In this document: positions 2,887 through 32,015 of the stretch, piece by piece
Numbering within the stretch: position 1 is the stretch's first letter
Layout: each line of letters begins with the position of its first letter
Source of the DNA: an uncultured delta proteobacterium
Lineage (GTDB): Bacteria > Myxococcota_A > Polyangia > Polyangiales > Ga0077539
Assembly (NCBI GenBank): GCA_903860995.1
Contig: CAIOSS010000681.1
Span: 1 to 32,015, forward strand
DNA length: 32,015 nucleotides
Direction: 5' to 3'
Position numbers and translations under genes: made by a program
Notes under the pieces: generated by a model
What the model was told of the DNA's origin: nothing
Database searches by the model: none
The model's input: the letters and a program-made list of their open reading frames with translations, nothing else

Positions 2887-3010
2887 GTGCACAGGGCGTC
2901 CAATGAGGCACCCCGGCTGGCACGGATTCACCCGGGTTTACAGAGGATCCATGATCAGCAGGACACCGTCCCGCGAGCGCCGCCAAGAGCTTCCGGGACG
3001 CCGCCCTGGC
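2887..3010 (-). repeat. ~125-bp repeat copy 1 (putative non-autonomous IS91/ISCR-like module)
   Basis: GTGCACAGGGCGTCCAATGAGGCAC...CATGATCAGCAGGACACCGTC...GCCGCCCTGGC aligns end to end with copies 2-4. It is the most diverged copy. Confidence 0.93.
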
Positions 3011-5086: not shown

Positions 5087-5205
5087 TCCCTGCGTCGGTG
5101 CACACCCTCTGAACGGCGTTCGTCCCCCACTGGACGGGCGCCGCGAGGGCGTGCAACGGTCGACGTCCGACAGTCCTGTCGCCGTTCGGGGAGCCCGTTC
5201 AGCCG

Positions 5206-6342
5206 ATGAAAAGAAGCGTCCTCTGGTTCGCGTTGCTCTTGCCCGCCTGCGATGCCGCGGGTGGAGACAGCATCTTCGTGGTCGAAGACGACGTGCCCGA
5301 AGAGGTCGACGCGGGCTTCGCGCCGATTGACACCGGCGTCGCCCGCGACACGGGCATCGTGCGCCCGACGGACAACGGCGTCGTGCCGCGCGACCTGGGC
5401 TCCCCCGTCGACGCGGGCTCCCCCGTCGACGCGGGCTTCCCCGTGGACAACGGGTTCGAGCGCGACGTGGGCTTCCCCGTGGACGTGGGCTTCCCCCGCG
5501 ACGCGGGCTTCGCGCTGGACACCGGCGTCACGCCCGGGCGCACCACCGTGATCGCCGGGCGGCGCTGCACCGTCGACGGCGACTGCTTCGGCGCCGCGTC
5601 CGCCCTCGCGTGCGTCACCACCATCGGCGGCAACGTGTGCACCGTCGGCGCGGGCTGCGACCAGGGCTCCGTCGCGGCGGAGGAGGCCGCCTGCGGGGGC
5701 CGCTACGCGACGTGCCTCGTGTACTCGACCCCGGCCACCGGGCCGCAGATCAGCCTGTGCAGCCGCGCGTGCGTCTCCGGGGCGCGCACGGAGGCCACCG
5801 GCGCGTGCCCCGCCAGCTCGATCTGCACCACCAACTGGCTGCAACTGCAGACCGCGCAGACCGAGGCGCCGGGCTGCCTGCCGTTCTGCACCTCCGACGC
5901 CGACTGCGCCGGGGCCCTCGCCGGCGACGCCTCCGTCATGCGCTGCAACACCCGCCTCGGGCGCTGCACGACGGCGCCCGTCAACCCCGCGCTGCGCGCC
6001 GACGGGTCGCTCTGCAACCCGATGATGATCCAGTCGACCGGCGTCGCGCAGTGCCGCGGCACGTGCTTCTCGCTCTCCACGGCGCGCCCGGCGGAGGGCC
6101 TGTGCGGGTCGTTCATCAACGTCCGCACCGCCCCTGCGGGGTGCACCGACGACCCGATGATGACCCCGCGCGGCCCGATGGGCGACGAGCTGGGCGTGTG
6201 CATCTTCCGCGAGTGCACCAACAACGTGGGCTGCACCGGCGGGTCGTACTGCGTGTACCCCGAAGACGCGTCGGGTGTGCGCCGCGACGCGGTGCCGTAC
6301 TGCGCCTACCGCACGACGCTCCAGCCGAGCGGCATTCCCTGA
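5206..6342 (+). CDS. Cys-rich lipoprotein with DxG linker repeats
   Basis: MKRSVLWFALLLPAC lipobox, repetitive PVDAG linker, then a Cys-rich C-terminal domain. Confidence 0.85.
   Translation: MKRSVLWFALLLPACDAAGGDSIFVVEDDVPEEVDAGFAPIDTGVARDTGIVRPTDNGVVPRDLGSPVDAGSPVDAGFPVDNGFERDVGFPVDVGFPRDAGFALDTGVTPGRTTVIAGRRCTVDGDCFGAASALACVTTIGGNVCTVGAGCDQGSVAAEEAACGGRYATCLVYSTPATGPQISLCSRACVSGARTEATGACPASSICTTNWLQLQTAQTEAPGCLPFCTSDADCAGALAGDASVMRCNTRLGRCTTAPVNPALRADGSLCNPMMIQSTGVAQCRGTCFSLSTARPAEGLCGSFINVRTAPAGCTDDPMMTPRGPMGDELGVCIFRECTNNVGCTGGSYCVYPEDASGVRRDAVPYCAYRTTLQPSGIP
5398..5526 (+). repeat. Degenerate 18-bp coding tandem repeat (G-F/S-P-V-D-x)
   Basis: GGCTCCCCCGTCGACGCG twice, then GGCTTCCCCGTGGAC variants, encoding GSPVDAGSPVDAGFPVDNGFERDVGFPVDVGFPRDAG. 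Confidence 0.8.
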
Positions 6343-6499
6343 TTCACGCGGCCTGGTCGCGGCGCGCGGCGGGCGGCGCGAGCGAGAGTCCCGTTCGAAT
6401 CCGGGGCGCCCGCCCACGCCGACGGTCGACGCCTCACCGGAGCGAAGCGACGGCGCGACCGCCCACGCCCACAGTCCCCGGCGTTTCGATCTGCGCCCG

Positions 6500-6603
6500 C
6501 GACGATCGGAGATGAGATCGAGCACGTAGTCTTCGGCCATCACGTCGGCGACGCGGCCGAGGCCGACGAGGCCGAGGGTGATCCAGACGGCGGTGAAGGC
6601 CGC
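6500..6603 (-). pseudogene. Fragment resembling a K+ channel inner helix
   Basis: Minus-strand AFTAVWITLGLVGLGRVADVMAEDYVLDLI with GC3-rich codons and no start of its own. Confidence 0.35.
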
Positions 6604-6610
6604 GCACCCC

Positions 6611-6703
6611 GGCGTGCGGGCCCGCGGGGTGACCCGGCGGTACCTCATGGGCGACGTGTCCATCGACGCGCTGCGCGGGGTCGACCTGAGCCTCGACGAG
6701 GGG
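6611..6703 (+). pseudogene. N-terminal fragment of a LolD/MacB-type ABC ATPase, cut by repeat copy 2
   Basis: GVRARGVTRRYLMGDVSIDALRGVDLSLDEG is the typical segment before Walker A. Walker A is absent and the repeat starts here. Confidence 0.8.
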
Positions 6704-6828
6704 GTGCATAGGGCGTCCAACGGGGCACCCCGGCCCGGCATGGATTCGCTCGGGTTTACTGAGAATCCATGATCAGCAGGACACCGTCCCGCGAGCGCTG
6801 CAAGGAGCTCCCTGGACGCCGCCTTGGC
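6704..6828 (-). repeat. ~125-bp repeat copy 2
   Basis: GTGCATAGGGCGTCCAACGGGGCAC...CATGATCAGCAGGACACCGTC...GCCGCCTTGGC. Confidence 0.95.
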
Positions 6829-6989
6829 GCGTGGCGGAGATCCACGTGCGCCGCTCGGTCGAGGCGGTCTTCGAGCAGAGCGTCGTCCTGCGCGAGATGA
6901 TCGAGGGCGGCCACATCGCCCTCGTGGGCGCGATGTACTCCGTGGAGACCGGCGGCATGGACCCATTCGATCAGAGCGCTCGTGCGTGA
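6829..6989 (+). pseudogene. C-terminal fragment of a beta-class carbonic anhydrase
   Basis: VAEIHVRRSVEAVFEQSVVLREMIEGGHIALVGAMYSVETG...stop matches the beta-CA C-terminus. The zinc-binding part is missing and the fragment begins at the repeat edge. Confidence 0.8.
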
Positions 6990-7377
6990 CCGCGGCAACG
7001 GCTGCGTCGCCAGGGTTCCGCGTTGACGGCGCGCGGTCGCTCCGCCCTCCGGAGGGGAGCGCGCGCCCACGTCGTCAGTCCCTGCCTCGCGGGCGGTGGC
7101 GTCGCCGGCTGCGTCGCTCATGATGGCGCTCGGCGAGATGCAGCAGTCGGGCGCGGTGCTGATCATCGAAGCGCCCGAGGGGGACCCCTCAACTCAAGGA
7201 GGTCGACTTCATCAAGTATCGCCTGCCGGACGGTGCGCCGTCTGCCACCGGAGCCTGAGCAGCACGGCCGTCGCGGGGCGGCGTTCCACGGTCGGGCCTG
7301 GACCGTTTCAAAGGCGTTGCTCGTCGCGCGGGGTGGCCCGCCGGCGTGGTGATAGGTTGGTGCGAAGGAGCCACCGC

Positions 7378-8754
7378 ATGCCCTTCCGCGCCTCGGTCAT
7401 CGGGTCACTCATCGCCCTGTGCGTCGCGTGTTCGTCGTCGGCCCCGATGGGCTCACCAGGGTGCCTCGCCGGCGCTTCGCTGGCCTGCGCCTGCACCGAT
7501 GGACGCGCGGGTGCCCAGGTCTGCGGCGACGACGCACGCCTCGGTCCCTGCTTGTGCACAAGCGGAGATGCGTCGCTCGCGCCCGCCGACGTCGCGTCGC
7601 CCGATGTCCCCGCGTCGCCCGATGTCCCCACGTCCCTCGCTGACGTGGTGACGCCCGATGTCCCCACGCCGCGCGACGCGCCTGCCGCCGATGTGCCGAC
7701 GTCGTCGACGCGGCCGGGCTTCCTCCACACGCAGGGCAGCGCGATCGTCGACGCGACCGGGCGCACGGTGCGGCTCACCGGGCTCTCGTGGTTCGGCTTC
7801 GAGACCTCGAACTACGCGCCGCACGGGCTCTGGCGGCGCTCCATGAACGCGATGCTCGATCAGGTGCGGACGCTCGGGTACAACGTCATCCGCGTCCCCT
7901 GGTGCAACCAGATGCTCGACGCGGGCAGCACGCCCAACGGCATCGACTTCGCCCAGAACCCCGACCTCCGCGGGCTCACCGCCGTCGAGGTGCTCGACCG
8001 CTTCATCGCCGCCGCGCGGGCGCGCGGACTCAAGGTCATCCTCGATCGGCACCGGCCCGATGCGAGCGGACAGTCCGATCTCTGGTACACGGGCGCGTAC
8101 GACGAGGCGCGCTGGATCCGTGACTGGGTCATGCTCGCGCGGCGCTACCGCGACGATCCGACGGTGATCGGCGTCGACCTCCACAACGAGCCGCACGGCG
8201 CGGCCACCTGGGGCGACGGCAACCTGGCGACGGACTGGCGCCTCGCGGCCGAGCGCGCGGGCAACGCCGTGCTCGCGGTGAACCCCGACCTGCTCATCGT
8301 CGTCGAAGGCATCGAGCGCTACGCCGGAACCTCCTACTGGTGGGGCGGCAATCTCCGCGGTGCGCGCACGGCCCCGGTGCGCCTCACGGTGCCCGGGAGG
8401 GTGGTGTATTCGCCGCACGACTACCCGTCCTCGGTGTCCGCGCAGGCGTGGTTCGGCGCGGCGGACTACCCCGCCAACCTGCCGCGCGTGTGGGGCGACG
8501 CGTGGGGATACCTCGCCGTCGAGGGCCTCGCGCCGGTCTGGATCGGTGAGTTCGGCACGCGCCTCGCGACGACCTCCGACCGGCAGTGGCTCACCGGGAT
8601 GGTGTCGTACGTGCGCGCGCACGACCTGAGCTTCGCGTTCTGGTGCCTCAACCCCAACAGCGGAGACACGGGCGGCATCCTCCAGGACGACTGGCAGACG
8701 GTGAACACCGCCCAGCAGTCGGCCCTGATGCCCTTGCTCGCTCCGCCGCTGTAG
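7378..8754 (+). CDS. Lipoprotein with a GH5 endoglucanase (cellulase) domain
   Basis: Lipobox CVAC, Cys module and D/P-rich linker. GH5 motifs GLSWFGFET, LDRHRP, HNEPH (acid/base), YSPHDY, IGEFG (nucleophile) and FWCLNPNSGDTGG. Confidence 0.93.
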   Translation: MPFRASVIGSLIALCVACSSSAPMGSPGCLAGASLACACTDGRAGAQVCGDDARLGPCLCTSGDASLAPADVASPDVPASPDVPTSLADVVTPDVPTPRDAPAADVPTSSTRPGFLHTQGSAIVDATGRTVRLTGLSWFGFETSNYAPHGLWRRSMNAMLDQVRTLGYNVIRVPWCNQMLDAGSTPNGIDFAQNPDLRGLTAVEVLDRFIAAARARGLKVILDRHRPDASGQSDLWYTGAYDEARWIRDWVMLARRYRDDPTVIGVDLHNEPHGAATWGDGNLATDWRLAAERAGNAVLAVNPDLLIVVEGIERYAGTSYWWGGNLRGARTAPVRLTVPGRVVYSPHDYPSSVSAQAWFGAADYPANLPRVWGDAWGYLAVEGLAPVWIGEFGTRLATTSDRQWLTGMVSYVRAHDLSFAFWCLNPNSGDTGGILQDDWQTVNTAQQSALMPLLAPPL

Positions 8755-8840
8755 GGTCGCTCGAGCGCACAGCGGCACCTTCTGGTCGTGGCGCGACGCC
8801 ATGTTCGCCGCCGCTGCCGCGCTCTGCCGCACGATCGCGG

Positions 8841-10037
8841 TCAGCGCTCCGACGCCGCCGCGGCCTTCGTCGCGTGCGGGAGGCCTGGCATGCCGACGGA
8901 GGGCGCCCACCGGGACTTCAACCGCAGCACCGGCGACTCGAAGAAGCGAAACGTGAACGACGCCACCGCCAGCGTGGCGAGCACCCACGCCGGGACCAGC
9001 AGCTCGAGCCCTGCGCGCGGGATCGCGAGCGGGCGCAGCAGCGCTGCGAGCGCGGTGCCCACGAGCACGTGCCAGATGTACATGCCGTAGCTGACGCGGC
9101 CGATGTGGCGCACGAGCGGGCGCGCGCACACGCTGCGGAGGAGGCCCTGCGGGTCTGTCGCGACGACCACGAAGACGCCGCCGCAGAGGGCGATCACGGT
9201 GTACCCGAGGGCCGAGAAGACCGCCCCGCCGCGCGCGGGCTCCCAGATGCCGAAGGGGGTCGCGACGAAGACCGCGAAGGTCGCGAGGGCCACCGCCGAC
9301 CATCGGGCCGCGGCGGCGCGCACGCGCTCCCACGCCGGCGCGGAGGTCGCCTGCACCGCGAGCCAGGCGCCCAGCGCGAGCCCGTCGAGGCGAAACGGGG
9401 TGAGGAGGTAGACGCCGTTCTCGCCCGCGTACGGCAGCGCGACCCAGCGGAGCAGCGGCGAGAGCGCCACGATGGCGACGCAGAGTCGCTCCAGCCCGCG
9501 GGCAGACAGGCCGCGCGCCGCGAAGGGCCAGAGGAGATAGAAGTGCTCCTCGATGGCGATGCTCCAGAGGATCGCCGCCGCCATGCCGGGGTAGTGCCCG
9601 ATGGCCTCGGGCACGTTGCCGAGGAAGCACAGCACCCGGGGCACGTCGTCGTCGTGGAGGTTGATGAGGTGCGCCGTGAGGTGCCACGCGTCGCGGTGCG
9701 CCTGCAGCGTCAGCAGCAGACCCACGTAGAGGAAATACAGCGGCATGATGCGCAGCGCGCGGCGGATCCAGAACGCGCTCAGCCCCTCCGTGGCGCGACC
9801 CTTCAGGAGGGTCCCGGTGACGAGGAAGCCGCTCAGCACGAAGAAGAGGTCGACGCCCACCCAGGCGCCGCGGCTCCAGCGCTCGAGCGCGGTGACGTAG
9901 TCCATCGGCAGCAGCGCCGGGGCGTGGAAGACCATCACCAGCAGCACCGCGACGGCACGCAGCGCGTCGAGGCCGGGCAGGTCACCGATGCGGCCCTTCG
10001 AATCCAGCGCAGGGAGGGACGTCGGCTCGGCAGCCAT
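8841..10037 (-). CDS. Acyltransferase-3 (OafA/YrhL-like) membrane O-acyltransferase
   Basis: LDALRAVAVLLVM, GVDLFFVLSGFLVT, FWIRRALRIMPLY, WSIAIEEHFYLLWP and GRVSYGMYIWH. Confidence 0.93.
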   Translation of the reverse strand: MAAEPTSLPALDSKGRIGDLPGLDALRAVAVLLVMVFHAPALLPMDYVTALERWSRGAWVGVDLFFVLSGFLVTGTLLKGRATEGLSAFWIRRALRIMPLYFLYVGLLLTLQAHRDAWHLTAHLINLHDDDVPRVLCFLGNVPEAIGHYPGMAAAILWSIAIEEHFYLLWPFAARGLSARGLERLCVAIVALSPLLRWVALPYAGENGVYLLTPFRLDGLALGAWLAVQATSAPAWERVRAAAARWSAVALATFAVFVATPFGIWEPARGGAVFSALGYTVIALCGGVFVVVATDPQGLLRSVCARPLVRHIGRVSYGMYIWHVLVGTALAALLRPLAIPRAGLELLVPAWVLATLAVASFTFRFFESPVLRLKSRWAPSVGMPGLPHATKAAAASER

Positions 10038-10141
10038 CGAGGTCGGAGCGTAGTCGACGCGCCCGCGCGCCGAAAGGCGCGGCCGCCTTGAGAGAAATGT
10101 GAGCACTGTTCACTTTTCGGACGTGATTCACGAAGAGGTGG

Positions 10142-10240
10142 ACGGCGAAGGCGGCGGGCGGCGCGCGCACCCAGGCGCGGCGGCTCGACGAGATCACCAC
10201 CGCGGCGTCCGACATCGTGCGCGACGAGGGCATCGTCCCG
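10142..10240 (+). pseudogene. Possible N-terminal fragment of a TetR-family regulator
   Basis: ARTQARRLDEITTAASDIVRDEGI resembles TetR helix 1. The HTH does not follow. Confidence 0.25.
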
Positions 10241-10368
10241 GGACGCTCCCGCCAACGCCCGCGGGAGCGCGTACTGCAGATGACAGGCGATCCGGTAGCT
10301 GGAGCGGGTCCGTGCCGACACGGCTCTCGCAGCACTGCGCCGTCGCGTCGCCTGATCCCCCGGAAGGG

Positions 10369-10840
10369 TCAGCGCGTGCGGTCGTCCTGCCAGAGCAGCG
10401 TGCAGCTCGCCCGCGTGAAGTCGGTGCACCGCCCGTCGCCGCCGCCCGCGAAGCCGCCGTCGGGCGAGCAGATCAGCTCGCAGTCCGACGAGATCAGCGA
10501 GCTGAACTGATCGCAGCACTGCGGCGGGAGGTAGAAGACCGTCGCGCCGCGGTACGTGCACCGGTAGATCGAGCGGGGAGGGTTTCCCACGGGCTGACTC
10601 GCGGCGGTCGTGATGAGCGTCTGGACGCACGCGGGCGTCGCCGGGGGGGGCGTCGGCGGGCGTCGGCCGGTCCTCCGTGGCGGTGTCCGCCGTGGCGGTG
10701 TCCGCCGGAACGTCGGCGGCCCCGGCGTCGACGCAGCTCATGCGCCCACCCGAGTCGTTGGGGCACACCGCCACGGGGCCAACACCGCCGCCATCAGAGC
10801 AGGCGACGAACCCGACACCCAGCACGAAGAGCCACCGCAT
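10369..10840 (-). pseudogene. Lipoprotein with a small Cys-rich domain (DUF6970-like), frameshifted in a G8 run
   Basis: MRWLFVLGVGFVAC lipobox. A shift at G8 (10643-10650) joins it to TPACVQTLI..NPPRSIYRCTYRGATVFYLPPQCCDQFS...CSPDGGFAGGGDGRC. Confidence 0.7.
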
Positions 10841-10900
10841 CTGTCCACGCGACTCCCCTCCGCGGCGACGCGTCCTGTCGGCGGTCAGCGCCCCGCATCA

Positions 10901-10964
10901 GCGCTCGACGTCTTCGGCATGGAGCGCTGCTTCTTCGCGTCGAACTCCCCCAATGGACAAGGTC
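10901..10964 (+). pseudogene. Internal fragment of an amidohydrolase-2 family gene
   Basis: ALDVFGMERCFFASN(S)P-MDKV resembles the conserved FGxxRxxFxSNFP motif. Confidence 0.6.
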
Positions 10965-10965
10965 G

Positions 10966-11042
10966 GCGGTGGCGAGCGGCCGGGTGAGCGTGCTGCCCGA
11001 CGGCAACGTGGCGTACCGGGTGAAGTCGTCGCGCAGCGCGAG
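10966..11042 (+). mobile_element. Internal fragment of an IS91-family (Y2/HUH) transposase
   Basis: AVASGRVSVLPDGNVAYRVKSSRSAR resembles the segment after the catalytic Y..RP motif of IS91/ISCR transposases. It ends at repeat copy 3. Confidence 0.6.
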
Positions 11043-11169
11043 GCGCATAGGGCGTCCAATGGGGCACCCCCCGCCCGGCACGGATTCGCTCGGGTTTACA
11101 GAGAACCCATGATCAGCAGGACACCGTCCCGCGAGCGCTGCCAGAAGCGTCCCTGGACGCCGCCTTGGC
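11043..11169 (-). repeat. ~125-bp repeat copy 3
   Basis: GCGCATAGGGCGTCCAATGGGGCAC...CATGATCAGCAGGACACCGTC...GCCGCCTTGGC. Confidence 0.95.
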
Positions 11170-11734
11170 CACGGTGATCTTCGCCGTGTGCTCGATGATC
11201 TCCGTGCGCATCACGCCGGTCATCGGGTCGTCGCAAAGCACGACGCTGCCGTGCCGCGCCAGCATGAACGCCTCGCACCCCGTGGCCACCACCGCCGCCA
11301 CCGCGTCGGGCACGTCGGAGGTCGTCGGCGACGCGTACGGCACCGTCGGCACGCGGCCCATCGCGAAGAGAATCTCCGGCACCACCGGCGGGTCGAGCCC
11401 CCAGCCCGCCGCCGTGAGCCCCACCGCGGCCGGCGGGTGCGCGTGCACCCCGCACGCGAGCCCCGGCCGCTGCGCGTAGAGCGCGAGGTGCAGCTTCAGC
11501 TCCGTCGAGGCCTTAGCCCCCGCGGATGACCCGCCCGGCCAGGTCGAGCAGCACCAGGTCGCCCTCGCGGAGCATCCCCTGGTGCACGCCCGACGGCGTG
11601 CAGAGCAGCCGGCCGTCACCGACGCGCGCGGACAGGTTGCCGTCCGTGGGCCCGATCAGCCCGCGCTCATAGAGCACCCGCGCGGCGTCGCAGAGGGCCT
11701 TGCGCAACGCGGGCTCGGTGACGGGTGGGCGCAT
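11170..11734 (-). pseudogene. Class II aldolase/adducin family gene, frameshifted and 3'-truncated by repeat copy 3
   Basis: DGNLSAR, TPSG, STELKLH, VHAHPP and ARHG motifs. Frameshift at ~11517-11521. The frame runs into the repeat after EHTAKITVA. Confidence 0.85.
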
Positions 11735-11749
11735 CGCGCGGCACCTCGA

Positions 11750-13717
11750 TCACAACTCCGTGGCGGCCTCGGTGTCGGCGCCAGACCCGCCCCGCAGGCG
11801 CATCGCGAGCACCAGGATGACCACCATGAGCCCGCCCTGCAGGTCGCTCACATACTCCGGCAGCGCGACGCCCGCGGCGGCCCCCGCGAGGCTCAGCACC
11901 ACCCAACCGAGCATCGCGCGGTGCACCATCATCGCGCCCACCGCGGATGACACCGCCGTCAGCAGCATGTCGTTGACGAGCACCGCGTGCACCGGCGTCT
12001 CGAGCTGCGCCGCGAACACCCGGTTGACCAGCGAGGCCACCGCGATGGCCACGAAGGCCCCGACCACCCGGTGCCCGATGCTGTTCTGGAGCAGCCGGCG
12101 GCGGGCCAGCACGATCATCGCGGTGAGCACCGCCACCACGATGCCCTCGTACAAGATCAGGTCGTCGTGCGTGAGCTGGCCCGGACCGCCCGGCTGCAGG
12201 TGCGGCACCGCGGCCAGCACCGCGCCGAACACCAGCACCACTGAGAAGAAGGCGGTGCGCGAGCCCGCGCCGACGGCGAGGTCCTGGTCGCGCTCGAGCT
12301 GACGCAGGCGGTCCTGCGCCGCGCGGCGCGCCTCGAGCCGGGTGCCGAGGGCGTCGAGCTTCGCCGCCAGGTCGGGCCGGTCGCCGCCGATCTCCGCCAG
12401 CGTCGTGCGCGCGGCGTCCTCGCTCTCGTTCCGTAGATTCACCTCGAACATGCGCTCGAGGCAGACGCCCATGCCCGCCCGCGCGTCCGGGTTGTCGGGC
12501 CACTCGCGCAGCGCCTGCGCGAACCCGAACCGACACTCTGTCAGCAGCGTGTGCAGGCGCCGCCGATCGTCCGGCGTCTCCGCGGCGGCGAGCGGCCCCA
12601 GGGCCTCCGCCAGGCGGGCCGCGGCGGTCGCGCCCAGGGCCGTCGACGCGCGGTGCCGGAGGTAGTCGGTCACCGCCTGGCGAAACGCCAGCACCGTCGG
12701 GTACCGCTCCGACGGGTTCGCCCGCGTGGCCCGGTTGCAGATCGTCGCGAGCTCCGTCGGGACGTCGTCGCCGTAGACGTACGGCTCCGAGCGCAGCGCC
12801 GCGACCACGACCAGCGAGAGCGTCGCGCCGCTGTGCCGCGGCACTCCGGTGACCACGCAGTGCAGCGTCGCGCCGAGGAGGTAGACGTCCGAGCGGGCGT
12901 CCATGGAGTCGGCGCCGTCGCCGATCATCTCCGGCGCGAGGTAGCCGGGGGTGCCCGCCACCGCGGCGCCCTGCGTCCGCGCGCAGCCGTCGGGCCCGGT
13001 GCGCAGCGCGATGCCCCAGTCGCAGAGGTACACCTCCCCGTACTCGCCGATCATCACGTTCTCGGGCTTGATGTCCCGGTGCAGCACGCCGTGGCGGTGC
13101 GCGAAGTGCACGGCGTTGCAGACCTGCACCAGCACCTCGAGGTGCGCCACGAGGCGGTCGTCCGAGAAGGTCTCGAGGCGCGACCAGTACGGGTGCGCCG
13201 CGTCGCGCACGAGGTCGTACCAGGCCACCCCGACCACCCGCTTCATCACCAGCACCGGGAGCCCGTCCGGGCCGACGCCCAGCGCGTGCACCGGGACGAT
13301 GTTCGGGTGCTCGAGCGAGCCCATCAGCACCGCCTCGCCCATCAGCGCGTTGGCGGCGACGAGCCCGCCGTCGGGCCGCGCGATCTTCACCGCGACGTCG
13401 CGCTCGAGCGACTGCTGCCAGGCGCGATGTACGGTCCCCATGCCGCCCTTGCCGAGCACGCCGAGCAGCACGATGTCGGGGTCGGAGTCGAGCGCCGCAT
13501 CGACCGGTCGAGGGACCACGGAGAGCATCGGGAGCCGTTGGCCGCTCGGCGACGCCGGCGCGGTCTCCGACGAGGACGCCGGCGCGGGGGCCATCGACAC
13601 GAAGCGCCGCGTCGCGCTGTGGGCGTCGAAGGGCGCGTCGGCGAGGCCCAGCGCGCGCAGAGACTCTTGCAGCCCGCCCGCGTGAACCGAACCGCCGTCA
13701 CCAGACCCTTCGTGCAT
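11750..13717 (-). CDS. Hanks-type Ser/Thr protein kinase with C-terminal membrane helices
   Basis: LGKGGMG, VAVK, HPNIVPVH, HRDIKPEN, DWG, GTPGYLAPE and SDVYLLG, followed by several hydrophobic helices. Start approximate. Confidence 0.93.
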   Translation of the reverse strand: MHEGSGDGGSVHAGGLQESLRALGLADAPFDAHSATRRFVSMAPAPASSSETAPASPSGQRLPMLSVVPRPVDAALDSDPDIVLLGVLGKGGMGTVHRAWQQSLERDVAVKIARPDGGLVAANALMGEAVLMGSLEHPNIVPVHALGVGPDGLPVLVMKRVVGVAWYDLVRDAAHPYWSRLETFSDDRLVAHLEVLVQVCNAVHFAHRHGVLHRDIKPENVMIGEYGEVYLCDWGIALRTGPDGCARTQGAAVAGTPGYLAPEMIGDGADSMDARSDVYLLGATLHCVVTGVPRHSGATLSLVVVAALRSEPYVYGDDVPTELATICNRATRANPSERYPTVLAFRQAVTDYLRHRASTALGATAAARLAEALGPLAAAETPDDRRRLHTLLTECRFGFAQALREWPDNPDARAGMGVCLERMFEVNLRNESEDAARTTLAEIGGDRPDLAAKLDALGTRLEARRAAQDRLRQLERDQDLAVGAGSRTAFFSVVLVFGAVLAAVPHLQPGGPGQLTHDDLILYEGIVVAVLTAMIVLARRRLLQNSIGHRVVGAFVAIAVASLVNRVFAAQLETPVHAVLVNDMLLTAVSSAVGAMMVHRAMLGWVVLSLAGAAAGVALPEYVSDLQGGLMVVILVLAMRLRGGSGADTEAATEL

Positions 13718-13882
13718 CGCCGTCCGCGTGAATGTCGCACGGCGACGCCCGCCGTGTCGCCTGTGCGCGCACCTCGTCCGGAAGGACGTCCGGCGCGCGC
13801 GGGCGTTGCGTGGGCGCGAGGCCGTCGCCCATGGTGGGGAAGGTCGCGGGCTCATGGCCCGACGCGAAAGGTACGATCGCTG

Positions 13883-14077
13883 ATGGCGCGCGAAGACCGC
13901 GTACGGTTCCCAGGGCGAACCCTGTTTCTCACCGAAGACCCGTCGCTGCTGGCGCAACAGCTCCAGGGGGTCGACCTCGCGTGGGACCCGGCGCGCCCGC
14001 TCGTCGACAACATCTCCACCGACGAGATCACCCCCGGGTGGGTCTGCTACCACTACGATGAGACCCTCGCGGAGTAG
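13883..14077 (+). pseudogene. N-terminal fragment of an aconitase/isopropylmalate dehydratase-like gene, cut by repeat copy 4
   Basis: MAREDRVRFPGRTLFLTEDP...DNISTDEITPGWVCYHYDETLAE carries the swivel-domain DNISTDxIxP motif. The stop coincides with the repeat edge. Confidence 0.8.
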
Positions 14078-14201
14078 CGCATAGGGCGTTCAATGGGGCA
14101 CCCCCGCCCGGCACGGATTCGCTCGGGTTTACAGAGAACCCATGATCAGCAGGACACCGTCTCGCGAGCGCTGCCAAGAGCTCCCGGGACGCCGCCTTGG
14201 C
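14077..14201 (-). repeat. ~125-bp repeat copy 4
   Basis: GCGCATAGGGCGTTCAATGGGGCAC...CATGATCAGCAGGACACCGTC...GCCGCCTTGGC. Confidence 0.95.
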
Positions 14202-14388
14202 GATCCAGACGGCGGTGGGGTTCGTGGGCACCGTCGACTCGCGCACGACCATCACGCCGCGCTTCGCGTCGACCACGCCGGGCGCCGCGGAGACCCGCCG
14301 CGTCGCGCAGAACTGGGTCGATCAGGCGCTGAAGTCATCCGTGTTCCTGCCGACGGTCTCGCTGTCGCTGGGGTACCGGCTCTTCTGA
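14202..14388 (+). pseudogene. C-terminal fragment of a probable outer-membrane beta-barrel protein
   Basis: IQTAVGFVGTVDSRT...FLPTVSLSLGYRLF-stop has a terminal beta-signal pattern. It begins at the repeat edge with no signal peptide. Confidence 0.6.
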
Positions 14389-14465
14389 CGGGCGTCTGGC
14401 CGGGTGAAGCCGCTTGCGCGCGGCGCCGAGTCGATGTCAGCAGTCAGTGCCTCCCACCCCGTTAG

Positions 14466-15254
14466 ATGCCCTGCAAGATCTGCCGCGCGCCCGCGGACTA
14501 CTTCGACGCCGTCGACTTCGCCAAGAACTGCTGCGAGCTCGCGGGGGTCGTGCTGCCCCGCACCGGTCGTACGGTCACGTACCTTCGGTGCGGCGCGTGC
14601 GGGTTCATCTTCACCACGTACTGCGACGCCTTCACCCCCGTGGACTTCGCGCGCGAGATCTACAACGACGACTACGCGCGGGTCGACCCGCTGTACCGGT
14701 CGATCCGCCCGGCGGCCAACGCGCGCCTGCTGCGCGAGGTACTCGCCGACGCGTGGGGCCTCGCCGCGCCGCCGCGCCTGCTCGACTACGGCGCGGGCGC
14801 CGGCGTGATCGCCGGTCTGCTCGGCGACCGCGCCGTGGTGCGCAGCTACGACCCGTTCTCCGCGGAGCACGCGGCGCGGCCCGAGGCGCGCTCGGAGATC
14901 GTGTTCTCCGCCGAGGTCATCGAGCACGTCACGGACCCCCTCGCGACGCTCGGCGCGATGCGCGACCTGCTCGCGCCCGGCGGCATGATTCTCTTCTCGA
15001 CGATGATGGCGCCCGCCGACGTCGCCGTGGTGCGCGCGGCATGGTGGTACATCAGCCCCCGCAACGGGCACGTCAGCATCTACACGCACCGCGCGCTCGA
15101 GGTCGCCTGCGCGCAGACCGCGCTCCGCTACACCCCGCTCAGCGTCGAGTGGCACCTCGCCGAGCACCGCGACGCGCCGTGCGCCGTGCTCGACCGCGCC
15201 GCGCTCGGCGCCATCGTCGCGCGCCTGCCCACGGGCTTCGTCGTCGTCGAGTGA
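14466..15254 (+). CDS. Class I SAM-dependent methyltransferase with N-terminal Cys (Zn-ribbon-like) motifs
   Basis: CKIC and CGACG, LLDYGAGAG, EVIEHVTDP, LAPGG and WWYISPRNGHVSIY. Confidence 0.9.
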   Translation: MPCKICRAPADYFDAVDFAKNCCELAGVVLPRTGRTVTYLRCGACGFIFTTYCDAFTPVDFAREIYNDDYARVDPLYRSIRPAANARLLREVLADAWGLAAPPRLLDYGAGAGVIAGLLGDRAVVRSYDPFSAEHAARPEARSEIVFSAEVIEHVTDPLATLGAMRDLLAPGGMILFSTMMAPADVAVVRAAWWYISPRNGHVSIYTHRALEVACAQTALRYTPLSVEWHLAEHRDAPCAVLDRAALGAIVARLPTGFVVVE

Positions 15255-15584
15255 AGGGCGGGCGAGACGGTGCAGTTTCGGCCGCGAGGCCACAGCATGG
15301 TCGGCGAGATCTCGAGCGGCGACCTCTGCACGGTGGCGGTGCTCGCGGCGGGCGACATCGTCCTGTGCCGCGTGCACGGCAACCAGTACCTGCACCTGGT
15401 GAAGGCGATCCAGGGCGAGCGCTTCCAGATAGGCAACAACCGCGGCGGCATCAACGGCTGGATCACCCGTCGACAGATCTTCGGTCGCCTGCTCGCGGTC
15501 GAGCCGGGACGCGCGCGCGCCGGCTCGCCATCGCGCCTCGCGGCACACCGCGAGGCCTCGGGCGCTTCGCCAAGGCGCGGTTGA
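15255..15584 (+). pseudogene. S24/S26 peptidase-like small protein, probably 5'-truncated
   Basis: RAGETVQFRPRGHSM...GDIVLCRV...YLHLV...IGNN. The frame starts directly after the methyltransferase stop with no clear native N-terminus. Confidence 0.55.
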
Positions 15585-15697
15585 ACGAAGCCGCGGAGCC
15601 TCCGGGCGGCCGGCAGTCGTCGATGTGGGAAGAGGGTTGGCCATCGATCCACGGCTGCACCCGCCGCGGGGCAGTCGATGGCGGCCCCCACGGGCCG

Positions 15698-15990
15698 CTA
15701 CCCGAGGCGCTTACCCTCCTCGGTATTCAGCAGGTCCAGCGGGCTGCGCAGCGTCGCGCGACGCGCCTCGGAGAGGTGCGTGTAGCGGGCCGTGCTCTGG
15801 AGCGACCGATGCCCCAACAGGATCTGCACGGTGCGCAGGTCGGTGCCGATCTCCAGCAGATGGGTCGCGAACGCGTGACGCGGGAGGTGGGGATAGACGC
15901 GGAGCTTGAGGCCCGCGCGCTCGACCGCCGCCCGCAGGGAGAGCTTCACCGCCGCGCGCGTCAGCGCATTGCCCCGGGCCGGAACATAGA
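15698..15990 (-). pseudogene. C-terminal remnant of a tyrosine recombinase/integrase
   Basis: [13 protein letters not shown] (HxxR), LLGH, TARYTH (catalytic Tyr) and SPLDLL. The N-terminal part with the first Arg box is missing. Confidence 0.9.
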
Positions 15991-16210
15991 GACTGGCGAA
16001 CAGCAACTTCCCCTTCGGACGACTCTCTCGCCAGTAGGTGCGGAGCGACTACCTTGTCTGCGATTTTCGCCCTGCTACTCGTCATCGGGAGTTCCCGACC
16101 CATCGTGGGAGGAGTTCGCTTGCACCGGGCGATGGGTCACCGTAGGCACAGAGGGTGTTGTGCTGCCCTGAGGGGTCACATCCCTTCGTTTTATCGGAGG
16201 CTAAGGCGCG

Positions 16211-17850: not shown

Positions 17851-19551
17851 TTAGCGAGCGAGCGCGGCCCCGAAGCCAGGGGTCGCGTCGTCGAAGGTGA
17901 CATCGGGCGCAGGGCCCGGACCTCGGCCCAGGCGACCGAAATACACATGCACTCTCCCCGGTTGGGGCGATCGTGGAGAGGTCACCGCGAGGTCGGGAAG
18001 GCCGTCGCCGTTGACGTCTCCCGGCCCCGCGACCGCCGCGCCGAAGGCCACCTCGCCCATCGGCGGCAACGCCACGCCCACAGGCATCTCGAAGCGCGGC
18101 AACTCCGTCTCCGGGAGCGTCGTCGGCGATGACCCCGGCGGGCTCGCGCGACCGAAGAACACCGCGCCGCAGTGGCCCGCGATGAGGCTCGCGACGTCGT
18201 CGAGGCCGTCACCGTTGATGTCACCCAGGGGCGTGGTGGCGGCCTCGAGGCTCATGAGCGCCCCCGCCGGGAGCACGCACGGCAAGGGGTTCGGCTGCGC
18301 GCTCGCCCACCCGCCGACCCCGCGCGTCGCAGGCCCTCGCAGCACGAGCGAACTGCCCGCGGCGAGCCCCCCGAGCAGCAGGTCGGCGACGCCGTCGCCG
18401 TCGATGTCTCCCGCGGGATAGAGCCTGCGCCCGGCGCTCGCGAGCCCGACGCGCGTGGACTTGATCGCCCCGAAGACACCGCTCGGAGATCCTGCAAAGA
18501 CCATCACGAAGCCGCGGCCGGCGTTGGTCGGGTCGCCGGGATCGGTGTAACCCGGTAGTCCTACCGCGAGGTCGGTGTACCCGTCGCCGTCGCGGTCGCC
18601 CGCGCTCGCGAGCGCCATCGTGGGCTCGCGGCTCGACCCCGCCCCCAGCAGCGCGCCCGTCGGCCGCGCGGGCGTCCCCGTCGCAGCGCCGTGAAAGATC
18701 AAAACCCGCGTGTGCGTCGCGGTTTGCGACGACACGGCGATGTCGCCGTAGCCATCGCCGTCGAGGTCGCCCACGCCCGCCGCCGCGGCGCCGAGCACCT
18801 CGTCGGGCTGCGTGGCGGTGAGCGTCACGTGGCGGGTGTAGCGCCCGCTCGCATCGGCAAAGAGCACGTACACCCGCGACGGCAGGTCGGTGACCATCAC
18901 CTCCTGTCGCCCGTCGTCGTCGGTGTCGCCTGCGACGGCGACCGCCTCGGCGAAGCGAGGCCCCGCCCCGTCGGGCGCGAAGGTCACCGCCCGGGTGCCC
19001 GTCCGTGGATCTACGATCACAAAGGCACCGCGCGCCGCGCCGACCGTCGCCGCGGGGAGCGGCGCGCCGACGAGAAGCTCCGTCTGCCCGTCGCCGTCGA
19101 GGTCAGGCAGCGCACGATCGCCCGCGGTGATCGAGCCTGGCGCACGGGCGCTGGGCACTTCGAACCACCGCGGCGTCGTCGCCATCGCGCCGCGCGCGAG
19201 CGACCACCAGTAGCGCCCCGGAGCCATGGGCGTAGGAGCGGTCCACGCGCAGAAGCGCACGCCGCGCACGAAGGGGCCGGTCTCCTCGCGCGCCGCGTCG
19301 CCCGCGGGACAATCCCGCGTGCGGCAGATGCGCAGCGTCGCCGTGCAGCCCTGGTCGTCGATCCACGTGAGCTTCGGTCGCGCCGCGCTGAGCAGGGTGG
19401 CGGTCGGCGGTTGCACTGCCGCGAGGGGCCGCAAAGCAGGTCGCGGCGGTGCGTCGATGGAGGCGTCCGCGGAGGCGGGGCGAAGGGTCCAGCTGTCAGG
19501 TACGCAGCCCAGCACGACCGTCAACAGCACCGGACTCAAGACGACCTTCAC
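17851..19551 (-). CDS. FG-GAP repeat (integrin-alpha-like propeller) lipoprotein
   Basis: VVLGC lipobox; repeated GDxDGDGxxD and FGAAVAG motifs. Confidence 0.88.
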   Translation of the reverse strand: MKVVLSPVLLTVVLGCVPDSWTLRPASADASIDAPPRPALRPLAAVQPPTATLLSAARPKLTWIDDQGCTATLRICRTRDCPAGDAAREETGPFVRGVRFCAWTAPTPMAPGRYWWSLARGAMATTPRWFEVPSARAPGSITAGDRALPDLDGDGQTELLVGAPLPAATVGAARGAFVIVDPRTGTRAVTFAPDGAGPRFAEAVAVAGDTDDDGRQEVMVTDLPSRVYVLFADASGRYTRHVTLTATQPDEVLGAAAAGVGDLDGDGYGDIAVSSQTATHTRVLIFHGAATGTPARPTGALLGAGSSREPTMALASAGDRDGDGYTDLAVGLPGYTDPGDPTNAGRGFVMVFAGSPSGVFGAIKSTRVGLASAGRRLYPAGDIDGDGVADLLLGGLAAGSSLVLRGPATRGVGGWASAQPNPLPCVLPAGALMSLEAATTPLGDINGDGLDDVASLIAGHCGAVFFGRASPPGSSPTTLPETELPRFEMPVGVALPPMGEVAFGAAVAGPGDVNGDGLPDLAVTSPRSPQPGRVHVYFGRLGRGPGPAPDVTFDDATPGFGAALAR

Positions 19552-19684
19552 TGCGCGGCACCTTCTCAGGTCGGTGCGAGAACTTCCACTGGCAACACCA
19601 CCCGGTGCGAGCGGTCACTCTCCCGCCGGGGCTGCTGGGCATCGGATCACCGCCCAGGGCGCCCTTCCGCGCAGGTCCGCGGGG

Positions 19685-20125
19685 CTACATGCACCCGCTG
19701 AAGTCCGTGATGCGGCCCCAGGTGCCCGGCGGCGTGTCCTCCGTACAGTCGGTGAGGGTGTACGCCTTGACGACACCGGCGGGGTTCGTGCCGCCGCTGC
19801 ACGTCAGCGAGGTCCACTGGGTGTACGTGAACGTGCTCGCGCCGCAGGTGAAGCGGCTGCTCGAGTTTTCGTGGCCTGCTCCAGTGGTGCTCGAATGGCA
19901 ACAGGTGCTCCCGTAGTGAACCGGGAGCCGCTGCGAGGCGACCATGGTCCCCGTGCAGGAAGCGTTGCGCCAGCGACCGATGGTGACCCAGCGCTCGAGC
20001 GCGGCGTCGCAGGTCCCCGCGGTGCCGCTGTCAGCTCCGCCGGTGACGCTGTCTGTAGAACATCCCGCCAGCTGCGAGGCCGATAGAAAAAGGCATACAG
20101 AGATCGCGCGGGAGTGGGTATTCAT
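19685..20125 (-). CDS. Small Cys-rich lipoprotein
   Basis: LAGC lipobox; HENSS..C...C.G...VKAY.L..C.EDTPP is shared with 17313-17837. Confidence 0.8.
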   Translation of the reverse strand: MNTHSRAISVCLFLSASQLAGCSTDSVTGGADSGTAGTCDAALERWVTIGRWRNASCTGTMVASQRLPVHYGSTCCHSSTTGAGHENSSSRFTCGASTFTYTQWTSLTCSGGTNPAGVVKAYTLTDCTEDTPPGTWGRITDFSGCM

Positions 20126-20230
20126 GACTTCTTCCTGGTGCCAACGGCACCCGTCGAAAGATGCTGACTGTAATGTATCCGATACACCTTGAATGGCCTG
20201 TACCGAGAACCTCCTGGCACTCGCCCGCCG

Positions 20231-23200
20231 CTACCGGACCACGGCAGCGCCGAACTCGTCACTCACGGCGCTGCCGCTGCCGAGCGTGGCCGACACCGAC
20301 GACGTGGGAAAGCCCGTCGGGCTCGACATGTACAGGTACGCGCGCGACCGACCCGGGGCTCCCACCAGGATGTCTGCATAGTTGTCTCCATTGACATCGC
20401 CTACGCCTCCTACGCTGGCGCCATAGTCGACGTCCTGCTCGCTGACCTCATGGGTCCACCATGCAGTCTCAGAGATGCCACTCGGCATTCCGCGGTAGAT
20501 GTTCACCCGTCCCCCTGTCCGGATCCACTCAGGCGCCGAGAAAGTCCGCGTGTCCTTGGTTCCCACCACAATGTCAGCATAACCGTCTGCGTCGAGATCC
20601 CCGGCTCCTGCCACAAATGACCCATGCTCATACAGAGACGTCCCTCCCTGGTCTATCATACTCTGAGGATAGGACAATAGGCCGGAAGTCCCACCTAGAT
20701 ATAAACTAAAATAGGGAATGTTGTAGCCAATAGTAGCATAAGCGCTCATCAGGACATCTGCGTAGCCATCGCCGTTGACGTCGCCGGCTCCGGCCACCGA
20801 ATAGCCGAAAAAATCAGATGCACCGCAGTATCTGTTGGGGGAGAACTGCAGGCCTGTCATGCTTCCAAGATAGAGGACAACTCTTCCGGAATTGCCGCGC
20901 CCGGTACCACAATCATCTAGATATGTGCCGATCAAGATATCGTCGAAGCCGTCTCCGTTGACGTCTCCCGCCCCGGCCACCGAGAGTCCGAAACCGAGGT
21001 AATCCTGGCTCAGGCGGTACCCGGCGGTATTCGGAAGCCCCGTCGCGCTCCCCACGTAGATGTTGGCGACCTGAGCCGCAGAACGGCCAACAATGATGTC
21101 CGCGTAGCCGTCACCGTTGACGTCGCCCGCGCTTGCGACGCTGTCGCCCGTGGTGATCGTCGTGGCAGGGCTCGCTGGCAGGGTTCCGCTTCTTCCGAGA
21201 TAGATGAGTGTTTGGCTAGTGGCCAGTACCGCAAGGTCGCCATAGCCGTCGCCGTTGACATCGCCCGCGCTGGCCACCGAAGAGCCAAAGCGAGAGAGCC
21301 CCGTAGGTGGGTGGAGGGTGACCGAGGGAGTTGTCGAGATGCCTGACGCGCTGCCAAGGTACACCGTGACGCGCCCCCCTCCCGCGTAGCCAGGCGCGCC
21401 CACCGCCACGTCGGAGTAGCCGTCGCCGTTGACGTCGAGCGTGGTCCCGCCGCTGGTGTTCACGGGTGCGCTGCGGTGACCCACCCGAAACCACCACGCG
21501 GGCGAGTAGCCGGTGCTGAAGCGACCCGTGTTGGTGCGCCCGCGCAGACGCCACCAGTGGATCCCTGGTGTGAGGGTGAGTCCCACGGTGACCGTGCCGC
21601 CCTCGGCGTCCTGGCTCCATTCCACGTTGCCGCAGGTTCGCGTGGAGCAGACCTGAACGCGCGCAAGGTCAATGCCGCGAGGCATCGCCCACCGCAGAAG
21701 CGGTGTTTGCGAGCTTACCGTCGCCATCGCGAGCGGCCTGATCGCCCGCGGCGTGGGGATCTGCGAGCAGCCGTTGGCAGGATTGCCATCCAGGTAGTCG
21801 TATCCCGAAGAGCAGGTCGTACTGGCATTGACGCAAGTCCCTGCCGTGCAGACCTGATCGGCGAGGCAGGTGTTGCCGCAGGTCCCGCAGTTGTATGGGT
21901 CTAGAGAGAGGTTACGGCACGTCCCTGCGCAACCCGTGGTGCCCGCCGCCGAGCACGACACTGCACATGCTCCCCCCTGGCACACCCGGCCCGCGGGGCA
22001 CACCACGCCGCACCCGCCGCAGTGGTTCACGTCGTTCACCAGGTCGCGACACACCCCCGTGCAGGTCGCCATGCCGCTCCCGGTACAGGCCGCGCACGCG
22101 CCGTTCGTGCAACTCTGATCCGTCGGGCACACCCGACCGCACGCGCCGCAGTTGGAGCGATCCGTGAGGAGGTTCACCTCGCAGCCGTTGGTGCCCGTCG
22201 CGTCACAGTTGGCGTAGCCCGCGGAGCAGGTTCCGCCGGAGCAAACGCCGATCCGGCAAGCGGCTGTGGCGTGCGCGGAGGCAGGGCACACATTTCCGCA
22301 GGCACCGCAGTGTTGAGTGTGGGTTTCGAGCCGCACTTCGCAGCCGTTGGCCGCGTCGCCGTCGCAGTCGGCGTAGCCTGTACGGCAGATCGCAAAGGAG
22401 CGCAGGACCTCTGCGTTGGGGGGGGTTGCAGCCCCGCGGTACACCGTCGCGCGCCGTGCAGTGCCCGCCGAAGTGCTCTGGTCGAAGAGCACGAAGTCGG
22501 TGTACCCGTCGCCGTTGACGTCGCCGAGCGCATCCCCGCTGCGAAACTCTGCAGTTGTGGCCTGGAAAGAGAAAAGGTAAGTGCCGGACGGTCGTCCTGG
22601 CGCGATGGAGACAATGTTGCTCCGGACCCCGCCGAGGTCGGCAAAGCCGTCACGGTTTACGTCCCCCGCGGAGAAGCCCTGAGGTCCGTTGTAGAAGTCG
22701 TGTGGGGAACTCCCGGGAATTCCGGTCGCAGACCCGTACCAGGTTCGCGTTTCGCCGCGGTCGGAGGGGGCAACGTCGCAGTAGCCGTCTCCGTTGAAGT
22801 CCGCCATGGCCACCGTTTGGCCAAAGAAGTCTTCTGTGGTGGAGAAGCTGAGCGTGCGATGGACCGTCGCACTGATCCCGGCGGAGCCGCCGAGATAGAT
22901 CCTGACCATCCCATAGGCATGATTGCGCGGGACGCCGACGCTGAGGTCTGCGTAGCCGTCGCCGTTGACATCGCCCGCGGCCAGTCCGGCGCCGAAGTTG
23001 TCGTCATTGGTATCAGAGGAGGTCCCGTTCAGGGTGCGCGCAGGGCTGGTCGAGAGGCCCGTGGCCGAGCCGTGATAGATCCGAACCGTTCCGCTCAAGG
23101 TCGTGCCGCGACCCGACACGGCCACGTCGGCGTAGCCGTCGCGGTTGGCGTCGCCGATGCCCTGCACCTGCTGGCCGTAGTGCATGGTGGTGTCCGAGAG

Positions 23201-24883: not shown

Positions 24884-25018
24884 GAGCACCTCGGTGAGGC
24901 CCTGGTTGCGGTCCGCGGCAAAACCCTGTTGGGGTGCCGCGCCACGGAGAGGCTGAGCGAGGTAAGCCAGCGCCGTCGCCGACGGCAATGTCGCGCCGAT
25001 ATCACCGGCGCGGTGCCA

Positions 25019-31482: not shown

Positions 31483-31659
31483 GGCGACGGGTCCGGATGT
31501 GCGGCGTGCACCACGCTCGACGCGCTCCCCAGCGCGACTCGCGGTGCCCGCGTAGGGGCTACTGAAAGGTCGCTCGTCCATCCTGCGGGGGTACGCGTAC
31601 ACCTGCTCGGCGCCGACAAAGGATGCCTTGGCGCAGGCCACCCAGTCGGTTCGGCAGCG

Positions 31660-32015
31660 CGCCGCGTGGATGGGCCGCAGCGTCGTGCGCGTCTACGAGA
31701 ACATCGCCAGCGAGGCCAACTGGACCACCCTCCGCCTCGTGGGTCGCGGCCCGGGCGGCGCCAACCACGCGGCCATCGGGGCCGCAGGTGCGGGTCACCA
31801 CGGGCTCGGTCACCCAGCGCCGCGACGTGCAGGGCAACTGGGGCCTCGCGGGCCTCGGCACCGAGCTCCCGGTGCACGTGGGCCTCGGAAGCAACTGCAC
31901 CCTCGACCGCATCGAGGTGCGCTGGCCCGACGCCGCCCGCACGGTCGAGACCTTCACCGACGTGCGGGCCCACTACGGCCTCGAGATCGTCCAGGGCGCC
32001 GGGCGGGTGCAGTAC
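31660..32015 (+). pseudogene. ASPIC/UnbV C-terminal domain fragment (5'-truncated, frameshifted, runs off the window)
   Basis: VRVYEN...NWTTLRLVG...ANHAAIGA, frameshift near 31783, then QVRVTTG..TQRRDVQG...VHVGLG...IEVRWPD. Confidence 0.75.

Follow-up and report, generated by a model that had tools for sequence, protein, structure and literature searches.

A high-copy 123-nt repeat of an uncultured Myxococcota lineage as a probable miniature derivative of the IS91/ISCR origin end

Introduction

Interest in insertion sequences (IS) of the IS91 family and their ISCR relatives comes from the view that the origin end by itself suffices to mobilise adjacent DNA. The ISCR-type enzymes carry one catalytic tyrosine and the IS91-type enzymes two. 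As set out in passages of PMC13181058, elements of the IS91 family have terIS upstream of tnpA and oriIS downstream of it, adjoin a target tetranucleotide at oriIS (CTTG, GTTC or GTCC), are cleaved at CTCG or GTTC at terIS, and leave no target duplication. For ISCR1, an oriIS region of 232 bp is placed 3' of rcr1 in an excerpt of PMC6218425, and the 22-mer GTGGTTTATACTTCCTATACCC is printed as its oriIS-like right end in a part of PMC13023784. That same excerpt of PMC6218425 states that ISCR transposition has never been shown experimentally.

Short derivatives of such elements have been described for IS801 in Pseudomonas syringae pv. phaseolicola, where right-end miniature fragments of 229, 360 and 679 nt are ascribed to one-ended transposition. 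These are bounded, in the transposase sense, by GAAC, GGAC, CAAG, CGAC or GCAC (Bardaji et al.; excerpted text of PMC3189936).

Here we analysed contig CAIOSS010000681.1, a stretch of 32,015 nt that we call the window, in which an earlier note had proposed that one end of a repeat at 14077-14100 looks like an IS91/ISCR oriIS. Throughout, C-numbers are contigs of the same genome, and G- and L-numbers are relatives' genomes and extracted loci, respectively. Our analysis indicates that these 24 nt are probably the outer tip of a 122-125 nt non-autonomous derivative of the oriIS end of the host's own IS91/ISCR-family insertion sequences.

Results

Four copies of a direct repeat in the window

Positions 14077-14095 of the plus strand read GCGCATAGGGCGTTCAATG, the reverse complement of the string CATTGAACGCCCTATGCGC that had been quoted for the fourth repeat copy. 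A degenerate pattern derived from the four quoted ends, GYGCAYAGGGCGTYCAAYG, matched exactly four times, at 2887, 6704, 11043 and 14077, always on the plus strand, with no match expected from 100 shuffles of the sequence. This confirmed all four quoted ends, including the variants listed with them. Each pattern site is the left tip of a copy of a direct repeat, 122-125 nt in length, and the right tips, GGACGCCGCCYTG, finish at 3008, 6826, 11167 and 14199; copies 1 to 4 therefore measure 122, 123, 125 and 123 nt. The proposed repeat boundary 4 nt past CCTAT proved real, with copy 4 starting at 14077 (here and below a slash marks a joint):

2887..3008, plus strand: repeat copy 1, 122 nt, with the variants CCTGT and CCCTG
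6704..6826, plus strand: repeat copy 2, 123 nt
11043..11167, plus strand: repeat copy 3, 125 nt
14077..14199, plus strand: repeat copy 4, 123 nt, ori end left and CTTG end right
14077..14100, minus strand: outer (oriIS-type) terminus of copy 4, reading ...CCCCATTGAACGCCCTATGCGC/ in the transposase sense and then flank

Most other direct-repeat families of the window are supplied by large minus-strand genes at 17854-29082, which contain FG-GAP/VCBS-type repeats (63-nt periodic GTCGCCGTTGACGTC units) and cysteine-rich repeats.

A genome-wide family with three subfamilies

Searching the genome to which the window belongs, a fragmented 7.0-Mb metagenome-assembled genome (MAG) of 1467 contigs that is 82% complete, with a four-copy profile (nhmmer) gave 68 matches on 49 contigs. 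Alignment of 46 long matches separated three subfamilies with the left tips GYGC-ATAGGGCG, GGGG-ATAGGCGA and GCCR-ATAGGAGG, and with a right end, ...GACGCCGCCTTG, common to all three. Each subfamily has its own 4 nt outside ATAGG (GYGC, GGGG/GGGT or GCCR), and the copies diverge beyond them. Both ends were located by motif in 45 rows, one of which was mis-anchored onto a neighbour and was dropped. The length is 122-123 nt in 35 of the remaining 44, a set in which two further rows are mis-anchored at the left end by the regular expression, and these copies end ...GCCGCCTTG; GC directly follows CTTG in 33 of the 44. The family is present in seven of eight congeners and, in two other genera of the same family, in one of two and one of three genomes, with no match in the other 27 relatives searched. 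Its presence explains why the MAG breaks into short contigs at such loci.

Two variants of the right end were also seen. At C505:5254, C121:3311, C1071:13972 and C979:487 the last ~11-20 nt are duplicated in tandem (...GGGACGCCGCCTTGGC twice), as if termination or joining had occurred twice. A ~42-nt piece consisting of the right end alone (query 86-127) occurs solo many times in congeners, for example at G005:C31, G001:C205, G001:C148, G001:C213 and G004:C59.

The repeat is the 3' terminus of IS91-family elements

The Y2_Tnp domain (PF04986) was found at nine places in the MAG, all over cut-off, and Zn_Tnp_IS91 (PF14319) at six, four of them over cut-off. They represent two IS91-family lineages, type 1 (...LERLCRYMARP...) and type 2 (...VYAYLGRYTHRVGISN...). 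No complete tnpA is assembled in this MAG, where every piece is a fragment or runs off a contig end; congeners hold complete type-1 copies of ~1.9 kb with open frames of 481-540 aa. The 535-aa ORF at L062:1435-3042 matches Zn_Tnp_IS91 (7e-22) and Y2_Tnp (1.8e-29), and is 36-37% identical over 90-91% of length to plasmid-borne transposases of the ISCR1 and ISVsa3 families.

We aligned the DNA that follows the stop codon in L062, L059, L067, L057 and the MAG's own C1159 and C812 with window copies 2 and 4, both reverse-complemented. Over its full length the repeat is collinear with the final ~125-140 nt of the IS, whose very end, 3' of tnpA, is ...GTTG-N5-6-CCTAT plus 4 nt; complete elements finish ...GTGCC-N-GCGTTG-N5-6-CCTAT-NNNN. 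The MAG's type-2 elements (C656 twice, C806, C633 and C1077) end in ...GCGTTGGTTCGCCTATCCCC, like type 1, and combine another inner 3' region with the same ~70-nt terminal module. Solo copies consist of this ~70-nt origin module and ~53 nt of inner sequence, ending CTTG. Among 43 loci that encode transposase relatives in named MAGs (labelled Deltaproteobacteria, Myxococcaceae, Polyangiales or Myxococcales), 13 of 19 profile matches are on the expected strand immediately 3' of tnpA, and these 13 ends read ...CGTTG..CCTATnnnn, for example ...GCGTTGAAGCACCTATCCCC, ...CCGTTGGTTCGCCTATCGGC and ...CATTGGACGCCCTATGCAC. Because the repeat end is the actual 3' terminus of two host and congener lineages, the possibility raised by the earlier note, that host IS91-family elements have unrelated ends, falls away. 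In full-length copies oriented as in the window, tnpA lies to the right of the repeat and antisense, so strand displacement from the outer end would run rightwards, in the direction that had been predicted.

Further traces of these lineages are scattered through the genome and the window. The type-2 lineage (motif YAYLGRYTHR) has a ~335-nt repeated 3' region, seen on C1077, C386, C1141, C656, C806, C633 and C129, and the window itself contains two type-2 remnants:

15541..15677, plus strand: 137-nt internal piece of the type-2 3' non-coding region, without the ori tip, adjoining a phage-integrase gene fragment (15701-16048, minus strand)
31590..31670, minus strand: 81-nt type-2 tnpA remnant (...GAEQVYAY...), 86% identical to C1165:41-121

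On the presumed left (terIS) side of full-length elements, upstream of type-1 tnpA, two to six tandem copies of GCCGCCACCC were seen (C793 ~1060-1110, C1049, C296, L057, L059, L062 and L067), with short stretches of the array on about ten further contigs. We rejected the idea that the repeat is a fusion of terIS and oriIS: it aligns as a whole to the IS 3' region only, and the true left end of the full-length IS, made of the GCCGCCACCC units, is unlike the CTTG end of the solo copies.

Likeness to described origin ends

The oriIS motif that the earlier note had given agrees with real ends. The ISCR1 end, taken from a plasmid record, reads ...GGTGGTTTATACTTCCTATACCC and stops 4 nt past CCTAT, and the ISVsa3 end reads ...GGGCGTTTATTCTTCCTATACG; where the repeat has its terminal motif, ISCR1 reads GGTTTATACTTCCTATACCC. 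When anchored at the end, repeat-family ends match the ISCR1 22-mer at a modest 8-13 of its 22 positions, always retaining TT, CCTAT and the spacing to the end, and 455 of 200,000 random 22-mers from the MAG (0.23%) reached 11/22. The case for a putative oriIS is built on where the repeat lies and how it is oriented with respect to homologous transposase genes, the sequence likeness by itself being modest. In position, orientation and core sequence, the terminus is homologous to the IS91/ISCR oriIS end, as had been suggested.

The subterminal imperfect palindromes typical of oriIS regions were looked for as well. Single-sequence DNA folds gave hairpins that differ among the three subfamilies, and suspected compensatory changes between subfamilies were not upheld when these folds were compared.

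Flanks of the copies

The sequences beside copies 2 to 4 derive from several genes:

6827..6960, plus strand: right flank of copy 2, a 134-nt 3' fragment of a beta-carbonic anhydrase (Pro_CA) gene
7005..7086, plus strand: stretch 88% identical to DNA upstream of type-1 tnpA on C793
10966..11042, plus strand: left flank of copy 3, a 77-nt type-1 tnpA fragment (Y2_Tnp region), 96% identical to C139:11547-11624
11168..11771, minus strand: right flank of copy 3, a class II aldolase gene fragment
13802..14076, plus strand: left flank of copy 4, an Aconitase_C (LeuD-like) gene truncated at ...GGAGTA and represented by its 5' part and the region upstream
14200..14404, plus strand: right flank of copy 4, the 3' end of an unnamed gene that is intact in relatives

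An intact paralogue of the Aconitase_C gene is present on C1445 and in relatives, where homologues of the left and right flanks of copy 4 lie on separate contigs. The aldolase flank of copy 3 has repeat-free homologues on C1445 and in relatives, and a second copy of it on C901 stands behind a repeat with a different left half. The Pro_CA gene beside copy 2 is intact in relatives (97% identity to G001:C11). As a whole, positions 1-16050 of the window are a patchwork whose block homologues are scattered over different contigs in relatives, and conserved sequence resumes at 16049; the first 16 kb are debris of mobile elements and do not reflect native gene order. The left edge of the patchwork (815-1505) is occupied by genes for a Phd/YefM antitoxin (815-1105, minus strand) and a nucleotidyltransferase-domain protein (1182-1505, plus strand).

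The element starts 4 nt beyond CCTAT and ends at CTTG

Uninterrupted targets are known for copies 3 and 4 and for a full IS nested in another tnpA, and in all three the element starts at the G of GYGCATAGG, within 1 nt:

copy 4, in the Aconitase_C gene: interrupted GGAGTA/GCGCATAGG, uninterrupted GGAGTA/CTGCC
copy 3, in type-1 tnpA: interrupted CGCGAG/GCGCATAGG
full IS on C812, nested in another tnpA: interrupted CCACCAG/GTGCATAGG

At copy 4, the left flank ceases to match the C1445 paralogue and relatives after ...GGAGTA, base 14076. Since the three origin-side junctions all fall at the G of GYGC, the 4 nt beyond CCTAT belong to the element, as they do in ISCR1. We had considered these 4 nt (GCAC/GCGC) as a target tetranucleotide and rejected this, as they are absent from the uninterrupted targets of copies 3 and 4 and the C812 IS. 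The tetranucleotides flanking the ori side (AGTA, CGAG, GGGG, CCCG, TCCG, ACCA, CAGA, AGGG, TGCA and CCAG) include no target of the CTTG/GTTC type, and their only recurrent feature is a purine at -1. The 10-nt flanks that we listed contain no flanking direct repeat, a weak test given that the flanks are unrelated at every copy examined.

On the inner side, the sequence of the C1159 IS copy continues (CTTG/ACCGATTCCAACGC), whereas solo copies read CTTG/GC and then unrelated DNA; the inner end is CTTG, with CCTG or CTCG in a few copies. Uninterrupted flank homologues are available at six inner junctions (window copies 2, 3 and 4, C1071_10460 and two in relatives), most of which already hold GC, often as G/GC, at the joint. 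Given this pre-existing GC and the read-on at C1159, the element proper ends at CTTG and the GC is part of the joined site.

The same boundaries appear in contigs assembled from four public runs (two studies), which may include the window's own source sample. In these contigs, depth over the element bins exceeds that of the flanks by a factor of 50-200, and agreement with the window is lost at 14077/14079 and at 14199-14203; a single contig, from run X2, continues past 14199 as the C1159 IS copy does. No circle, excision or element-skipping joint was found among the contigs of the four runs, an assembled form that drops rare variants.

How the copies reached their sites

None of the seven copies for which the uninterrupted homologue of one flank is known is a simple insertion, the other flank being unrelated at all seven. 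Likewise, for 24 copies in relatives, no contig of our MAG contains both flanks together; at 82% completeness and with its fragmentation, the MAG yielded both flanks at all for only four. The copies may have arrived by discrete insertion of a miniature element followed by recombination, by capture of neighbouring DNA through read-through, or by both.

Ordinary insertion followed by homologous recombination or deletion between copies, with the chimeric flanks and the patchwork as scars of rearrangement, is a strong possibility that we place just short of probable. Flanking sequence is shared between copies by three right-flank pairs (C901/copy 3, C459/C241 and C1134/C1390) versus no left-flank pair, and within these pairs the left part of the element, or nearly all of it, differs. 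Two of them, C901_2970/copy 3 and C459/C241, are mosaics that share the right part and right flank, differ in the left part and left flank, and have different crossover points. Uninterrupted flanks on the ter side already hold a G/GC-like sequence, as expected for halves of genuine target sites, and recombination is the conclusion reached for most IS801 fragments in Pseudomonas syringae genomes in the excerpted text of Bardaji et al. (PMC3189936). Recombination alone leaves unexplained, however, the same-orientation clustering of copies and the packing together of blocks as small as 134 nt from many loci. It also needs a miniature element to account for the origin of the copies, and therefore complements that explanation rather than replacing it.

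The earlier note had instead taken each repeat with its right flank as the mobile unit. Under such read-through capture, the solo repeat would be a working orphan oriIS that, as proposed for gene capture by ISCR, moves together with a variable right flank past a weak CTTG stop, and new units would land beside resident ones to give same-orientation arrays of captured fragments. The orientation logic is correct. All four window copies lie on the plus strand, and 16 of 19 pairs of adjacent copies in the MAG have the same orientation at spacings of 108-10546 nt. The homologues of the window's patchwork are dispersed in relatives, copies 2, 3 and 4 each have on the right a gene fragment that breaks off at the repeat and on the left DNA from another locus, and sharing is confined to right flanks. 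In addition, IS801 moved 290-1431 nt of adjacent DNA in vivo according to the excerpt of PMC3189936, and a passage of PMC13023784 describes ISCR1 as needing only a ~100-bp oriIS region to move adjacent DNA. We nevertheless consider this route unlikely. Nearly all copies have the same right boundary, CTTG, beyond which the DNA is unrelated, and the constant length of most copies (35 of 44, as above) does not support a unit of variable extent. We saw no captured segment that recurs together with a whole element, and the continuation of the interrupted Aconitase_C gene was found nowhere in the MAG or the window, nor was that of the interrupted tnpA. Because the copies that share a right flank differ in the element itself, element and flank were not copied together, and these pairs point to recombination or repeated use of one site rather than to co-transfer.

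Two further observations concern orientation and flanks. A replication-strand bias behind the shared orientation was rejected when copy orientation was compared with contig G-C skew, a noisy proxy for replication direction at this level (8/7/9/9, 33 contigs, Fisher p = 1.0). The 620 nt to the right of the C42 repeat copy (L146 = C42:31500-37406, local 3031-3650) are multi-copy in relatives, with four places in G002, two in G003 and one in G008 at 78-83% identity.

That the repeat is not a transposon in function and is instead a structured RNA, a REP-like element or an integron attC-like site resembling an IS end is very improbable: its same-orientation arrays at 1-5 kb spacing recall cassette arrays and its two ends can pair (CCAAnGCGGC with GCCGCnTTGG), but the repeat is the physical 3' end of two IS91-family lineages, Rfam gave no match at gathering score in the window and none at E<=1 in 13900-14400, and alifold with DNA parameters found no consensus structure for 43 copies on either strand. 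An integron attC array in particular was rejected, with no integrase found in the 82% complete MAG (TIGR02249, none of ten matches over cut-off, best 83 versus 265 bits). A classical MITE was rejected too, as the tips GYGCATAGG and GCCGCCTTG are not inverted repeats and no duplication was seen; the sole inverted pairing is that of the internal CCAAnGCGGC with the right end.

Discussion

The reading that we prefer, a miniature element derived from the origin end of the host's IS91/ISCR-family insertion sequences, builds on observed homology, position, orientation, exact boundaries and copy number, and on the transposase genes present in the genome. From these we infer a mechanism of mobilisation. 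A transposase supplied in trans would nick the window plus strand just 5' of G-Y-G-C-ATAGG and bind the 5' end, replication from the 3'-OH of the flank would displace the strand rightwards, and cleavage after CTTG would free a single strand of ~123 nt, which would be circularised and inserted elsewhere. Repeated cycles, followed by recombination between copies, would yield dozens of copies in three subfamilies. This proposed process is the one to which the IS801 right-end miniature fragments are ascribed. The solo copies keep the ori end and stop at CTTG, and therefore match the "miniature" origin-end fragments of IS801. In the full-text literature we found no description of a high-copy, fixed-length miniature family derived from IS91, curated ISfinder entries lying outside that search.

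The family offers a natural minimal substrate for work on IS91/ISCR transposition: the element is ~123 nt long, its ends are exactly defined, it has diverged into three subfamilies, and there are two cognate transposase lineages. What sequence an origin and a terminator require can be deduced from the family and tested in vitro.

A bolder possibility, which we hold to be doubtful, is that the solo 123-nt elements are portable rolling-circle origins fired by the resident IS91/ISCR transposase and often reading through CTTG, so that units of an origin and a piece of a neighbouring gene would be reinserted at the nick site of a resident origin and same-orientation arrays would grow. If so, they would be a bacterial counterpart of gene-fragment capture by Helitrons and a builder of cassette arrays without an integrase. 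Helitrons belong to another kingdom, encode a Rep-helicase fusion protein and have defined 5'-TC/CTRR-3' ends. The likeness to non-autonomous eukaryotic Helitrons, which in excerpted accounts are rolling-circle HUH elements whose short derivatives outnumber autonomous copies and adjoin captured gene fragments, would be a resemblance of features.

Returning to the miniature origin-end element, the oriIS ends of ISCR1 and ISVsa3 (ISCR2-type) are among the closest systems known. As in these, the end lies 3' of a Zn_Tnp_IS91 and Y2_Tnp transposase (the 36-37% identity given above), carries the terminal motif GTT..(Y)CCTAT(R)C and is followed by variable, unrelated DNA. It differs from them in the small number of terminal positions held in common (8-13 of 22), in its host, a G+C-rich uncultured Myxococcota lineage, in involving no resistance genes, and in occurring also as dozens of solo 123-nt copies. 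As in one-ended transposition of IS91, where ori91 is essential and ter91 dispensable, an ori end and a terminator-like tetranucleotide would suffice, and the CTTG/GTTC/CTCG rule, as given in passages on IS91, applies. Unlike IS91, the solo copies have no IS91-type target tetranucleotide beside the origin end, a rule that is IS91's and may not be that of ISCR.

The IS801 fragments offer a direct parallel. Like these, as portrayed in the excerpted study, the solo copy is a continuous piece of an IS that keeps the intact right (ori) end, the copy on C1159 having the same inner module, and its inner boundary is a tetranucleotide of left-end or target type; CAAG, as CTTG reads in the transposase sense, is on the IS801 list. 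That excerpt presents the IS801 fragments as fresh products of full-length copies and as rare in genomes. The element described here, known from its sequence, has instead a single fixed 123-nt form, amplified to at least 44 full-length copies that fall into three subfamilies, and it persists across the genus. It is a new, high-copy form of a known type of rolling-circle derivative.
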